13,511 bases of DNA from Escherichia coli (GCF_003334315.1 NZ_QOWR01000081.1); one strand, 5' to 3'. Numbered from the stretch's first letter, positions 2,403 through 9,306 are shown. Translations and numbers: made by a program. Notes: generated from the letters alone by a model not told the origin.

Positions 2403-4243
2403 TTATTGCGACTGCCGGACACGTTGACCACGGCAAAACAACCTTATTGCAGGCGATTACTGGCGTAAATGCTGACCGTCTGCCGGAAGAAAAAAAGCGC
2501 GGCATGACCATCGATCTCGGCTATGCCTACTGGCCGCAGCCGGATGGTCGCGTGCCTGGTTTTATCGACGTACCCGGTCATGAAAAGTTTCTTTCCAACA
2601 TGCTGGCGGGCGTTAGTGGTATCGATCACGCGCTGTTGGTGGTGGCGTGCGATGACGGCGTGATGGCACAGACCCGTGAGCATCTGGCGATTTTGCAGCT
2701 GACCGGTAACCCGATGCTGACAGTGGCGCTGACCAAAGCCGATCGCGTGGACGAAGCGCGTGTTAATGAGGTTGAACGCCAGGTAAAGGAGGTGCTGCGG
2801 GAATACGGTTTTGCTGAGGCAAAACTGTTTATCACCGCAGCAACCGAAGGTCGGGGAATTGATGCCCTGCGCGAGCATCTGCTTCAGTTGCCGGAACGCG
2901 AGCACGCCAGCCAACATAGTTTCCGCCTCGCTATTGACCGCGCATTTACCGTAAAAGGTGCCGGGCTGGTCGTCACCGGTACGGCGTTAAGCGGGGAAGT
3001 GAAGGTAGGCGATTCACTCTGGCTGACTGGTGTAAATAAACCGATGCGTGTACGTGCGCTGCATGCGCAAAACCAGCCAACAGAAACCGCCAATGCCGGG
3101 CAGCGTATCGCGCTTAACATCGCGGGTGATGCGGAAAAAGAGCAGATTAACCGTGGCGACTGGCTGCTTGCCGATGTGCCGCCAGAGCCGTTCACACGGG
3201 TGATTGTCGAGCTTCAAACCCATACACCGCTGACCCAGTGGCAGCCGCTGCATATTCACCACGCCGCCAGCCACGTTACGGGACGCGTTTCGCTGCTGGA
3301 AGATAACCTTGCCGAGCTGGTGTTCGACACGCCGCTGTGGCTGGCGGATAACGATCGCTTAGTGCTGCGCGATATCTCGGCCCGCAACACGCTGGCGGGG
3401 GCGCGTGTGGTGATGCTTAACCCGCCGCGTCGCGGTAAACGTAAGCCGGAATATCTGCAATGGCTGGCGTCTCTTGCACGGGCGCAGAGCGATGCCGATG
3501 CGTTATCTGTTCATCTGGAACGCGGCGCGGTTAACCTTGCGGATTTCGCCTGGGCGCGCCAGCTCAACGGCGAAGGGATGCGCGAATTGCTGCAACAGCC
3601 TGGCTATATTCAGGCTGGTTATAGCTTGTTGAATGCGCCGGTTGCCGCTCGCTGGCAACGGAAAATTCTCGACACATTAGCGACTTATCATGAGCAACAT
3701 CGCGATGAACCTGGGCCTGGGCGCGAACGTCTGCGACGTATGGCGTTGCCAATGGAAGATGAAGCGCTAGTACTGTTGCTGATTGAAAAGATGCGCGAAA
3801 GCGGCGACATCCTCAGTCATCACGGTTGGCTGCATCTGCCGGATCACAAAGCGGGCTTCAGCGAAGAGCAGCAGGCCATCTGGCAAAAAGCAGAGCCGCT
3901 GTTTGGTGACGAGCCGTGGTGGGTGCGTGATCTGGCAAAAGAGACGGGTACCGACGAGCAGGCAATGCGCCTGACGCTACGCCAGGCGGCGCAGCAAGGA
4001 ATAATTACCGCGATCGTCAAAGATCGTTATTACCGTAACGATCGGATTGTCGAATTTGCCAATATGATCCGCGATCTCGATCAGGAGTGTGGTTCAACCT
4101 GCGCGGCGGATTTCCGCGATCGCTTAGGCGTAGGCCGAAAGCTGGCAATTCAGATTCTGGAATATTTTGACCGCATTGGCTTTACGCGTCGTCGTGGAAA
4201 TGATCATTTATTGCGCGACGCATTATTATTTCCGGAAAAATAA
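2399..4243 (+). CDS. selB: Selenocysteine-specific translation elongation factor SelB
   Basis: 614-aa ORF with GTP-binding P-loop [11 protein letters not shown] at N-terminus, DxxG (DVPGHE) and NKxD-like (TKAD) motifs; C-terminal winged-helix extension; ends ...LLFPEK as in E. coli SelB. Confidence 0.93.
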
Positions 4244-5748: not shown

Positions 5749-7287
5749 ATGACCAATAATCCCCCTTCAGCACAGATTAAGCCCGGCGAGTATGGTTTCC
5801 CCCTCAAGTTAAAAGCCCGCTATGACAACTTTATTGGCGGCGAATGGGTAGCCCCTGCCGACGGCGAGTATTACCAGAATCTGACGCCGGTGACCGGGCA
5901 GCTGCTGTGCGAAGTGGCGTCTTCGGGCAAACGAGACATCGATCTGGCGCTGGATGCTGCGCACAAAGTGAAAGATAAATGGGCGCACACCTCGGTGCAG
6001 GATCGCGCGGCGATTCTGTTTAAGATTGCCGATCGAATGGAACAAAACCTTGAGCTGTTAGCGACGGCTGAAACCTGGGATAACGGCAAACCCATTCGCG
6101 AAACCAGTGCTGCCGACGTGCCGCTGGCGATTGACCATTTTCGCTATTTCGCCTCGTGTATTCGGGCGCAGGAAGGTGGGATCAGTGAAGTTGATAGCGA
6201 AACCGTGGCCTATCATTTCCATGAACCGTTAGGCGTGGTGGGGCAGATTATCCCGTGGAACTTCCCGCTGCTGATGGCGAGCTGGAAAATGGCTCCCGCG
6301 CTGGCGGCGGGCAACTGTGTGGTGCTGAAACCCGCACGTCTTACCCCGCTTTCTGTACTGCTGCTAATGGAAATTGTCGGTGATTTACTGCCGCCGGGCG
6401 TGGTGAACGTGGTCAATGGCGCAGGTGGGGTAATTGGCGAATATCTGGCGACCTCGAAACGCATCGCCAAAGTGGCGTTTACCGGCTCAACGGAAGTGGG
6501 CCAACAAATTATGCAATACGCAACGCAAAACATTATTCCGGTGACGCTGGAGTTGGGCGGTAAGTCGCCAAATATCTTCTTTGCTGATGTGATGGATGAA
6601 GAAGATGCCTTTTTCGATAAAGCGCTGGAAGGCTTTGCACTGTTTGCCTTTAACCAGGGCGAAGTTTGCACCTGTCCGAGTCGTGCTTTAGTGCAGGAAT
6701 CTATCTACGAACGCTTTATGGAACGCGCCATCCGCCGTGTCGAAAGCATTCGTAGCGGTAACCCGCTCGACAGCGTGACGCAAATGGGCGCGCAGGTTTC
6801 TCACGGGCAACTGGAAACCATCCTCAACTACATTGATATCGGTAAAAAAGAGGGCGCTGACGTGCTCACAGGCGGGCGGCGCAAGCTGCTGGAAGGTGAA
6901 CTGAAAGACGGCTACTACCTCGAACCGACGATTCTGTTTGGTCAGAACAATATGCGGGTGTTCCAGGAGGAGATTTTTGGCCCGGTGCTGGCGGTGACCA
7001 CCTTCAAAACGATGGAAGAAGCGCTGGAGCTGGCGAACGATACGCAATATGGCCTGGGCGCGGGCGTCTGGAGCCGCAACGGTAATCTGGCCTATAAGAT
7101 GGGGCGCGGCATACAGGCTGGGCGCGTGTGGACCAACTGTTATCACGCTTACCCGGCACATGCGGCGTTTGGTGGCTACAAACAATCAGGTATCGGTCGC
7201 GAAACCCACAAGATGATGCTGGAGCATTACCAGCAAACCAAGTGCCTGCTGGTGAGCTACTCGGATAAACCGTTGGGGCTGTTCTGA
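5749..7287 (+). CDS. aldB: Aldehyde dehydrogenase B (NAD(P)-dependent)
   Basis: 512-aa reading from ATG 5749 preceded by AAGGAGA (5736-5742); translation [17 protein letters not shown]... with ALDH catalytic signatures (ELGGKSP glutamate motif, catalytic Cys in GEVCTCPSR). The track ORF start at 5611 is an unsupported upstream extension that overlaps the yiaY terminator. Confidence 0.92.
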
Positions 7288-7318
7288 TATAAGAAGCTGG
7301 TCGCATTGGGTATTCATT

Positions 7319-7400
7319 GCCTGATGCGACGCTTACGCGTCTTATCATGCCTACGGGAACCTGACCGTAGGCCGGATAAGGCGTACACGCCGCATCCGGC
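7319..7400 (+). repeat. REP/BIME element (two REP palindromic units in opposite orientation) downstream of aldB
   Basis: GCCTGATGCGACGCTTACGCGTCTTATCATGCCTAC (7319-7354) and GTAGGCCGGATAAGGCGTACACGCCGCATCCGGC (7367-7400) match the enterobacterial REP consensus families as I recall them. Confidence 0.75.
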
Positions 7401-7505
7401 ATAAACAAAGCGCACGTTGTTACAATTTACGTTTTAAACCTACGTGCGCAATAACCCAGACTACGCCAACAGAAGTGCGTTTCTGGGGCGTGTTTTGTCA
7501 GGAGT

Positions 7506-7646
7506 TTAATCTCGCGTTTCGATGGTGAGCGGGCGAACCAGGCCGTAAATCACCATTGGTGATCCGAGGCCAATCAGCAATAAACGGTAGATAATTGAAG
7601 GTTTAATACGCTTAATCTGTACTGTGGATGTTTTACTGGAGTTATT
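7506..7646 (-). CDS. Hypothetical small protein (47 aa from ATG 7646..7644; 70 aa if started at 7718), one predicted transmembrane helix
   Basis: Only ORF in the AT-rich aldB-yiaW spacer; translation MNNSSKTSTVQIKRIKPSIIYRLLLIGLGSPMVIYGLVRPLTIETRD has a basic stretch followed by a about 20-aa hydrophobic segment; no clear Shine-Dalgarno; unverified. Confidence 0.15.
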   Translation of the reverse strand, partial: NNSSKTSTVQIKRIKPSIIYRLLLIGLGSPMVIYGLVRPLTIETRD

Positions 7647-7765
7647 CATTAGTTTGGCCAATAGTTCCACTATTTCAATATGATAAACCTCGTCCTGTTG
7701 AAAAACCAGACAGCACATTTAAGAAAGTATATAAAAAACAATATGTCGTTATATAAATAAGGAAA

Positions 7766-7794
7766 TTGCACTGCATCATGGCATTTCATAATAT
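7766..7794 (+). promoter_or_regulatory. Candidate sigma70 promoter for yiaWV (-35 TTGCAC, 17-bp spacer, -10 TAATAT)
   Basis: Hexamers read by eye at 7766-7771 and 7789-7794 in an AT-rich region about 40 bp upstream of the yiaW ATG; no experimental support. Confidence 0.2.
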
Positions 7795-7831
7795 GCGTTA
7801 ATTGTTCTTTTTTATATTCTTTGAGGGAAAT

Positions 7832-8160: not shown

Positions 8161-9306
8161 ATGGATTTACTGATTATTTTGACCTATGTGGCTTTTGCAT
8201 GGGCAATGTTTAAGATCTTCAAAATTCCCGTAAATAAATGGACCATTCCCACAGCGGCCCTGGGTGGAATATTTATTGTCAGCGGTCTAATTCTGTTAAT
8301 GAACTATAACCATCCGTATACCTTTAAAGCGCAAAAAGCGGTTATTTCTATTCCTGTTGTCCCACAGGTGACTGGTGTGGTGATTGAAGTGACGGATAAG
8401 AAAAATACGCTGATTAAAAAAGGTGAGGTGCTATTTCGACTGGACCCGACGCGTTATCAGGCGCGGGTGGATCGGCTGATGGCGGATATCGTTACCGCAG
8501 AACATAAACAGCGGGCGTTGGGCGCAGAGTTAGATGAGATGGCGGCGAATACTCAGCAGGCAAAGGCCACGCGGGATAAATTCGCTAAAGAGTATCAGCG
8601 TTACGCACGTGGCAGCCAGGCGAAAGTAAACCCGTTTTCAGAACGCGATATCGATGTGGCGCGGCAAAATTATCTGGCGCAGGAAGCCTCCGTGAAGTCA
8701 TCGGCGGCGGAACAAAAACAGATCCAGAGCCAGCTGGATAGCCTGGTGTTGGGTGAACATTCTCAAATCGCCAGCCTGAAAGCACAGCTCGCGGAAGCAA
8801 AATATAACCTTGAGCAGACGATAGTGCGTGCGCCGAGCGATGGTTATGTGACCCAGGTACTGATTCGTCCGGGTACCTATGCCGCGTCGCTGCCGCTACG
8901 TCCGGTGATGGTGTTTATACCCGATCAGAAACGACAAATCGTGGCGCAGTTCCGTCAGAACTCCTTGCTGCGACTGGCTCCTGGCGACGATGCGGAAGTG
9001 GTGTTTAATGCTCTGCCAGGTAAGGTATTCAGCGGTAAGCTGGCAGCCATTAGTCCAGCCGTTCCCGGCGGAGCTTATCAGTCGACCGGCACCTTACAGA
9101 CGTTAAACACAGCGCCGGGTTCAGATGGCGTTATCGCGACCATTGAACTGGATGAGCACACTGATTTGAGCGCTTTACCAGACGGTATTTACGCCCAGGT
9201 GGCGGTTTACTCTGATCATTTCAGCCATGTCTCGGTGATGCGCAAAGTGCTATTACGCATGACCAGCTGGGTGCATTACCCACACCTGCGGCAACCGTGG
9301 CGATAG
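8161..9306 (+). CDS. yiaV: HlyD-family membrane fusion protein YiaV; last about 9 codons are junction-derived, not native
   Basis: 381-aa ORF starting 5 nt after the yiaW stop; N-terminal TM helix, biotinyl/lipoyl-like beta-barrel and long coiled-coil segments typical of membrane fusion proteins; from about 9280 the same nucleotides encode the WcaK N-terminal motif in another frame. Confidence 0.85.

Follow-up and report, generated by a model that had tools for sequence, protein, structure and literature searches.

An atypical BIME and a relic of the hicB antitoxin gene in the spacer downstream of aldB in Escherichia coli

The segment that follows aldB in the Escherichia coli DNA analysed here (the window, 13,511 nucleotides; all coordinates count from its start) is the 3' untranslated and intergenic region of this gene. 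Common repeats and gene debris make up this mosaic, which was not built as a stack of terminators. Four pieces follow one another: an atypical BIME (7300-7426), a junction of 11 nt (7427-7437), a relic of the antitoxin gene hicB (7438-7509), and about 30 nt that also lie 3' of hicB in strains carrying hicAB. Taken jointly, the observations are best explained by an atypical BIME joined to hicB debris, where the REP stem-loops would protect the aldB mRNA, the hairpins farther downstream would be accidental, and the REPs would edge an unstable segment; we regard this explanation as likely.

The aldB-yiaW spacer and its REP pair

The + strand of the window carries yibF, selA, selB, yiaY and aldB, followed by a 544-nt spacer (7288-7831), yiaW and yiaV. 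The aldB CDS (aldehyde dehydrogenase B) occupies 5749-7287 on the + strand, with a TGA stop at 7285-7287, according to the RefSeq annotation of identical DNA in AW1.7 and K-12 and to the K-12 alignment. Expression of aldB depends on RpoS. Aligned with K-12 MG1655, the spacer shows a single-base difference (7477, G vs A). K-12 coordinates equal 3,762,260 minus the window coordinate, and the K-12 genes are on the minus strand; the REP pair corresponds to K-12 3,754,860-3,754,941, and a small minus-strand ORF of the spacer (below) to 3,754,611-3,754,754. The RefSeq K-12 feature table lists no repeat_region feature at this spacer, and a literature search for BIME together with aldB found no relevant report. 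The spacer also contains, at 7707-7735, the constitutive sigma-70 promoter of yiaWV (CAGACA-17-TATAAA) reported by genomic SELEX (PMC3946193), and H-NS binding was reported in the aldB-yiaW spacer in the same work (PMC3946193).

Farther along the window there is an abrupt yiaV/wcaK junction at 9280-9281. The yiaV sequence matches K-12 up to 9280, a few codons short of its normal end, and continues into wcaK without the first 35 codons of that gene, then into wcaL and wcaM (colanic acid genes). In K-12 these genes lie about 1.6 Mb away. No IS or repeat was found at the junction, which is covered by 0 of the 5,426 complete E. coli genomes. The reduced genome DGF-298 was considered as the source and rejected because the whole region is deleted there. 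The junction looks like an assembly chimera or a unique rearrangement.

Two REP units lie in the first part of the spacer. The Y-type unit (GCCTGATGCGACGCTTACGCGTCTTATCATGCCTAC) is at 7319-7354 on the + strand with its CTAC foot at 7351-7354; it is extragenic, starts 31 nt past the aldB stop and is upstream of yiaW. The inverted Z-type unit (GTAGGCCGGATAAGGCGTACACGCCGCATCCGGC) is at 7367-7400 on the minus strand with its GTAG foot at 7367-7370. REPs are defined as imperfect palindromes of 30-40 nt with a conserved GTAG/CTAC tetranucleotide at the foot (PMC3333891), and, as in this definition, both units fold as hairpins with internal mismatches, CTAC ends Y, and GTAG begins the inverted Z. The units are arranged tail-to-tail around a 12-nt S-type linker (GGGAACCTGACC, 7355-7366, + strand), which makes the pair a BIME. 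The REP pattern matched the Y unit with one mismatch, at this place only, and had 0 matches in 200 shuffles. The same form of Y unit, with one position different, is found at ybaQ-copA and yaiL-fghA. The Z unit was identified by its alignment to the inverted Z units of mog-satP and yajD-tsx, both BIME-1 elements, and to BIME-2-like units.

The BIME extends beyond the two units on both sides. A partial inverted REP half (GTCGCATTGGGTA, 7300-7312, + strand) pairs with the left arm of Y (7318-7330) in a 13-bp hairpin. After Z there is a flank of BIME-1 type (ATAAACAAAGCGCACGTTGTTACAAT, 7401-7426, + strand), identical to the sequence after the inverted Z at mog-satP and yajD-tsx; we take it to be what Gilson and Bachellier called the 'B motif'. 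A 46-nt query for the flank that included just 5 REP bases matched a median of 5 places per genome, and with a 116-nt BIME query all 5,426 complete E. coli genomes gave matches, at 38-40 places or more in each. The element aligns with Y, Z and flank motifs at four other loci. Of all parts of the spacer, the BIME varies least within K-12-type strains (4 variable sites in 106 nt).

The earlier note on this DNA had placed two inverted REP units at 7319-7354 and 7367-7400 and called them a REP/BIME element. Both were found at these positions, tail-to-tail, and the assignment holds by the naRNA4 match in Rfam, by the alignments to Y and Z units elsewhere and by the number of copies per genome. In that note a lack of any match to REP families was to count against the assignment; the comparison was run, and 7319-7400 does align with REP units elsewhere. 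Three neighbouring pieces had been overlooked: the REP half at 7300-7312, the flank up to about 7426, and the hicB remnant at 7438-7509.

With respect to class, BIME-1 elements consist of z1 and y in single copy with a long conserved L linker that often has an IHF site, and BIME-2 elements are tandem copies of y and z2 with S linkers, s/l/r flanks and a strong gyrase site (PMC3333891). The aldB element shares with E. coli REPs and BIMEs in general the imperfect palindromes of 34-36 nt, the GTAG/CTAC foot, the extragenic position at the 3' end of a gene, the inverted Y and Z separated by a linker, and the high copy number. It differs from canonical BIME-1 in having a linker of 12 nt instead of the L motif of about 35 nt with its IHF site, the L motif being absent from the window, and a Y unit of the long 36-nt form, although the flank is of BIME-1 type and matches the mog-satP and yajD-tsx flanks exactly. 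From canonical BIME-2 it differs in being one Y-S-Z unit, not a tandem array, and in this BIME-1-type flank. As a single unit without an L linker and its IHF site it is neither BIME-1 nor BIME-2, and is therefore an 'atypical' chimeric BIME under the definitions of PMC3333891. The naRNA4 model (Rfam RF02564), which is derived from REP325 and is the only REP-derived family in Rfam, contains the same Z and Y units and aligned full-length three times, on both strands (39.5, 37.4 and 33.4 bits); the best of these scores is below the gathering score of 59.5, and the element is not a member of the family. According to PMC4550694, the REP325 unit is head-to-head, has a different linker and is repeated six times, whereas the aldB units are tail-to-tail. 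Judged by these comparisons, 7319-7400 is a genuine, ordinary and already known kind of E. coli REP pair, forming a single-unit atypical BIME.

The hicB relic and the downstream hairpins

Between the BIME flank and the hicB relic is a junction of 11 nt (TTACGTTTTAA, 7427-7437). Local alignment of the junction to alternative variants of the locus gave no significant match. For 7402-7441 as a whole, local alignment to these variants was no better than with shuffles; a BLAST search then showed its 5' part to be the BIME-1 flank. In E. whittamii the place of the junction is taken by 27 bases of other sequence.

In other E. coli, a hicAB type II toxin-antitoxin module lies beside aldB. BLAST of 7402-7505 found 7438-7486 (49 nt) with 100% identity in the interior of annotated hicB in such strains, and alignments extended the match over 7438-7509 on the + strand, which corresponds to the last 27 hicB codons minus 4 in the same frame with the same stop codon (TAA, 7507-7509), that is, 23 codons with an in-frame 12-nt deletion. 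The relic reads TYVRNNPDYANRSAFL-GRVLSGV* and intact hicB reads TYVRNNPDYANRSAFLAEAARRVLPGV*; BLASTP of the relic protein against HicB gave 21/27 identical residues (E = 1e-11), and tblastn supported the match. The homology to hicAB strains continues for about 30 nt past the hicB stop (7510-7540, from the alignments), where the minus strand encodes the C-terminus ..TIETRD* of an orphan ORF. Unlike the module, the window has neither hicA nor the first approximately 109 hicB codons. An in-frame TAA (7435-7437) precedes the relic, which cannot encode an antitoxin. By homology, 7438-7509 is a pseudogene relic of a deleted hicB antitoxin gene.

Two further inverted repeats had been described downstream of the REP pair and taken, with it, as one stacked structure. 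The hairpin with a U-rich tail, noted before at about 7468-7497, is present (ACGCC..CAGAA-GTGCGT-TTCTG.GGCGT and tail GTGTTTTGT, 7463-7498, + strand). It lies wholly within the hicB relic and is a candidate intrinsic terminator. The outer stem is formed by ACGCC (7463-7467) and GGCGT (7487-7491), the inner stem by CAGAA (7470-7474) and TTCTG (7481-7485), with the loop GTGCGT and the tail at 7490-7498. The fold of 7458-7500 was -15.8 kcal/mol (z = -2.6). A permissive scan with a TransTermHP-type tail score ranked it as the best site with hairpin and tail within 260 nt past the aldB stop (dG -15.0, tail score -3.80), and a consensus terminator scan called no site on the + strand between aldB and yiaW, 7463-7498 included. 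With intrinsic terminators the candidate shares a GC-containing hairpin and a U-rich tail (UGUUUUGU) within 1-2 nt; it differs from them in the internal loop and bulge of the 7463-7491 stem, and in being lineage-specific and partly degraded in O157. Most K-12-type strains carry the tail variant GTTTTGCC, not GTTTTGTC. G7472A breaks the hairpin in O157/O55 (-9.5 kcal/mol, z = 0.1, no better than shuffles). In SCPM-O-B-8794 about 7428-7619 is lost, both downstream hairpins included, and other E. coli lineages and Escherichia species are without the 7463-7498 hairpin.

The origin of this hairpin can be read from related sequences. Intact hicB ends in the ancestral hairpin, GCCCGGC-GTGTATT-GCCGGGC. 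The relic of Escherichia sp. MOD1-EC7003 is truncated in the same way but lacks the 12-nt deletion; its hairpin is intact as GCCTGGC-GTGTTTT-GCCAGGC, a compensatory C>T/G>A double change relative to intact hicB. The K-12-type relic equals the MOD1-EC7003 form minus CAGAAGCTGCCT. This 12-nt deletion removed the left arm of the ancestral hairpin, so that GGCGT now adjoins TTCTGG and forms the new ACGCC/GGCGT stem, and the ancestral loop GTGTTTT became the 'U-tract' of the new hairpin. A different deletion, of 14 nt, is found at the same place in E. whittamii. In E. albertii the sole element between the convergent aldB and sgbE is the hairpin TGCCCGGCGTGTATTGCCGGGCA, which has a 24-nt core matching the last 8 codons of E. 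coli hicB base for base; on this identity, it may be either a hicB relic kept as a terminator or a sign that the hicB end overlaps an older terminator.

The other repeat, GCGCACGT/ACGTGCGC at 7410-7417 and 7442-7449, was also found as described, perfect over 8 bp. When 7402-7831 was shuffled 500 times by mononucleotides, 24% of the shuffles contained a perfect inverted repeat of 8 bp with a loop no longer than 40 nt (mean 0.37 per shuffle), and the observed repeat is therefore no better than chance. Its left arm is within the BIME-1 flank, which occurs at other loci without hicB nearby, and its right arm is the Tyr-Val-Arg codons of the hicB remnant; with both arms explained independently, their complementarity is a matter of juxtaposition. 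The stem encloses a 24-nt loop, the minus-strand fold has z = -1.4, and TTTGTTTAT comes directly after the stem on the minus strand.

The stacked structure proposed in the earlier note does not stand in either of its downstream parts. The 8-bp repeat is at chance level and joins an unrelated BIME-1 flank and hicB codons, and the hairpin with its U-tract is a by-product of the 12-nt deletion in the hicB relic, degraded in O157/O55 and deleted in some strains. Both additional hairpins thus appear to be accidents of hicAB decay and not selected structures. That they lie in or beside the relics of a lost hicB gene is, from the alignments, a small new point.

Convergent with aldB, an orphan ORF of 47 codons lies at 7506-7649 on the minus strand. 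In RefSeq it appears as a 'hypothetical protein' of 47, 51 or 67 aa in some strains and is left unannotated in O157/O55 and K-12. It has no NCBIfam family, and a protein-homologue search matched E. coli alone. MOD1-EC7003 and E. whittamii share its C-terminus (..LVRPLTIETRD*) and a hydrophobic segment in readable form; the MOD1-EC7003 counterpart has 42 aa from a TTG start. The frame is open in 7 divergent strains, and a codon comparison of 7 strains gave 7 nonsynonymous vs 5 synonymous codon positions. Whether it is a gene at all is doubtful: it may encode a real small membrane protein or be a remnant. The small ORF ysaE has been validated, but K-12 annotates no gene in the spacer, and identity with ysaE was rejected.

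Variation of the locus across Escherichia

The K-12 arrangement is present in 3,788-3,798 of the 5,426 complete E. coli genomes (about 70%). About 508 further genomes match 7402-7505 partially, the partial matches among those listed lying inside intact hicB, and the remaining complete genomes have neither the K-12 arrangement nor a partial match. About 30% of complete E. coli genomes differ in structure from the Y REP onward, and at least four architectures start at the Y REP. After aldB, AVS0453 has Y, the L motif, Z, Z and then a GH127 gene; ECSC054 has a partial Y, hicAB, a REP and GH127; E69 has Y, L, Z, the flank and a partial Y; and 3702594 and AR Bank #0349 have a canonical terminator, a type I restriction gene and hicAB. 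The L motif (about 35 nt, ..GCAATATATTGAATTTGCA..) is thus present at this locus in AVS0453 and E69, not in the window. In ECSC054 the hairpin at 7298-7332 is kept, and the rest of Y has decayed. In the strains with the type I restriction gene, a canonical 13-bp hairpin (-21 kcal/mol) with A- and T-run flanks directly follows the aldB stop and there is no REP. This terminator faces the convergent type I restriction endonuclease gene.

The linker between Y and Z varies in length. It is shortest in E. whittamii (3 nt), measures 12 nt in K-12-type strains and 25-26 nt in SCPM and MOD1, and is longest in the L type (35 nt). The K-12-type linker equals the 26-nt linker of MOD1-EC7003 minus 14 nt. 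On its far side, the yiaWVUT block also ends in REPs. In the one IS1 insertion examined, that of KTa005, the element is in the AT-rich yiaW promoter region and not in the REPs; being outside the REPs, it is not evidence for REP targeting. IS1 insertions of some strains fall in the AT-rich part of the spacer near 7707-7735.

According to published work, BIMEs are enriched at strain-specific loops (PMC1187871), BIME linkers vary, and TnpA-REP cuts and recombines BIMEs in vitro (PMC3333891). The variation at the aldB locus fits both the enrichment at strain-specific loops and TnpA-REP recombination. The cleavage sites of TnpA-REP are CT dinucleotides in inverted REPs or linkers. The idea that this region is prone to rearrangement, put forward in the earlier note, is supported by the roughly 30% of genomes that differ from the Y REP onward and with linkers of 3-35 nt. 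At the DNA level, the REPs form the left border of a segment in which deletion, replacement and changes of size have recurred within Escherichia.

The aldB transcript end, alternative explanations and significance

The Y hairpin alone folds with -14.8 kcal/mol and the Z hairpin alone with -20.9 kcal/mol. The fold of 7296-7334, which combines the REP half at 7300-7312 with the left arm of Y, was -20.8 kcal/mol (z = -5.1), and the inter-REP hairpin at 7337-7384 was -31.1 kcal/mol (z = -6.6). The minimum-energy fold of the 3' UTR contains these two hairpins, 7298-7332 and 7337-7384, not two separate REP hairpins. The 7298-7332 hairpin has 13 bp, begins 12 nt past the aldB stop, and is conserved in almost every variant of the locus as well as in other Escherichia species. 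Some reports describe an effect on translation termination when a REP structure lies within about 15 nt of a stop codon. REPs acting as mRNA stabilisers were reportedly described by Newbury et al. in 1987, for example at malE-malF. In that kind of system, transcribed REP stem-loops 3' of a coding region are expected to block 3' exonucleases, and the same is predicted at aldB; the difference is that the aldB REPs close a monocistronic unit, whereas those of the malE-malF type lie between cistrons. Roles of REPs and BIMEs in mRNA stabilisation, in termination and in the binding of gyrase, IHF and Pol I have been described (PMC3333891, PMC2817692, PMC1187871).

During transcription of aldB, the REP region would fold into very stable stem-loops, either as separate REP hairpins or as the more stable pair 7298-7332 and 7337-7384. 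By stopping 3'-to-5' exonucleases, these stem-loops would set the mature 3' end of the aldB mRNA and protect it. RNA polymerase would probably stop further downstream of the REPs, perhaps partly at the weak hairpin and U-tract at 7463-7498, which is upstream of the reported yiaWV promoter (7707-7735), or by Rho before that promoter. Protection of the aldB 3' end by the REPs is suggested by the established behaviour of REPs elsewhere; termination at the candidate hairpin is possible and probably weak. The functional reading of the earlier note, 3'-end stabilisation and termination for aldB, is right only in part. No 3'-end mapping entries for aldB were found in the supplements searched (Adams 2021; Dar and Sorek 2018; 3'-UTR valve; TERMITe 2025; RepRanger 2025; Nanopore). 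In the strains without a BIME, the canonical terminator is directly after aldB, and the REPs are therefore not needed for aldB expression.

Several other explanations were weighed against this one. The downstream hairpins could be a selected pair of back-to-back terminators, with the BIME just a stabiliser: the 7463-7491 stem and UGUUUUGU would end aldB on the + strand, and the 7449-7410 stem and UUUGUUUAU would end the convergent ORF (7649-7506) on the minus strand. The + strand hairpin is indeed the best terminator-like site after aldB (-15.8 kcal/mol), TTTGTTTAT directly follows an 8-bp GC-rich stem on the minus strand, the ORF is open in the 7 divergent strains with its C-terminus conserved in E. 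whittamii and MOD1-EC7003, and polymorphism is somewhat lower in 7402-7509 (6 variable sites in 108 nt) than elsewhere in the spacer (22 in 182 nt). However, the minus-strand half is a chance-level 8-bp repeat whose arms are separately explained by the BIME-1 flank and hicB codons, with a 24-nt loop outside the usual terminator range and a fold at z = -1.4, and it would serve an ORF with no family, no homologues beyond E. coli and an unstable annotation. The + strand half was born from the 12-nt deletion and is broken by G7472A in O157/O55, and both hairpins are deleted in SCPM-O-B-8794. We consider a selected pair unlikely. A related reading confines selection to the + strand: the K-12-type lineage would have co-opted hicAB debris, the 12-nt deletion turning the ancestral loop into the U-tract of a new intrinsic terminator of aldB, and the ancestral hairpin CCCGGC-GTGTATT-GCCGGG would be a durable bidirectional terminator. 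This, too, seems doubtful.

A role chiefly at the level of DNA or the nucleoid is very improbable. The element would then be a gyrase, Pol I or HU site or a source of naRNA4-like RNA, and would insulate aldB from the yiaW promoter region, where H-NS binds, with respect to supercoiling. Y with a short linker and Z resembles a BIME-2 unit, and gyrase cleavage is enriched in BIME-2, with Y units preferred (PMC6379681), but BIME-2 elements are tandem arrays (PMC3333891) and there is one Y-Z unit here; the main text of PMC6379681 does not name aldB among the gyrase sites. The best sub-threshold match of the naRNA4 model is at this element, yet its 39.5 bits are below the gathering score of 59.5. 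The reported H-NS binding in the spacer (PMC3946193) is in line with such a role, and the absence of the L linker means that there is no IHF site of the BIME-1 kind. The element might also have no host function, the BIME being selfish or neutral and spread by a REP-associated transposase, the rest being pseudogene debris, and aldB ending wherever Rho or a chance structure stops transcription. The wide variation of the locus among strains and species, with the BIME wholly absent in some, the variable linker and the cleavage and recombination of BIMEs by TnpA-REP in vitro (PMC3333891) all speak for it. On the other side, the BIME is the least polymorphic stretch of the spacer in K-12-type strains (4 variable sites in 106 nt), the aldB-proximal hairpin at 7298-7332 is kept in nearly all architectures, and transcribed REP stem-loops are established exonuclease barriers; a complete lack of function is unlikely. 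The preferred explanation remains an atypical BIME whose stem-loops would protect the aldB mRNA, followed by accidental hairpins in hicB debris.

The finding has little significance beyond annotation, the BIME being a standard element of the best-studied bacterial genome. It carries a caution: a hairpin beside a repeat may have arisen by accident as a gene decayed, and the two arms of an inverted repeat may come from unrelated pieces of sequence. As a compact example of REP-bounded turnover, the locus shows the loss of hicAB, the presence or absence of the yiaWVUT island and the resizing of the Y-Z linker, and it may be a test case for REP-associated rearrangement and for the loss and replacement of terminators.
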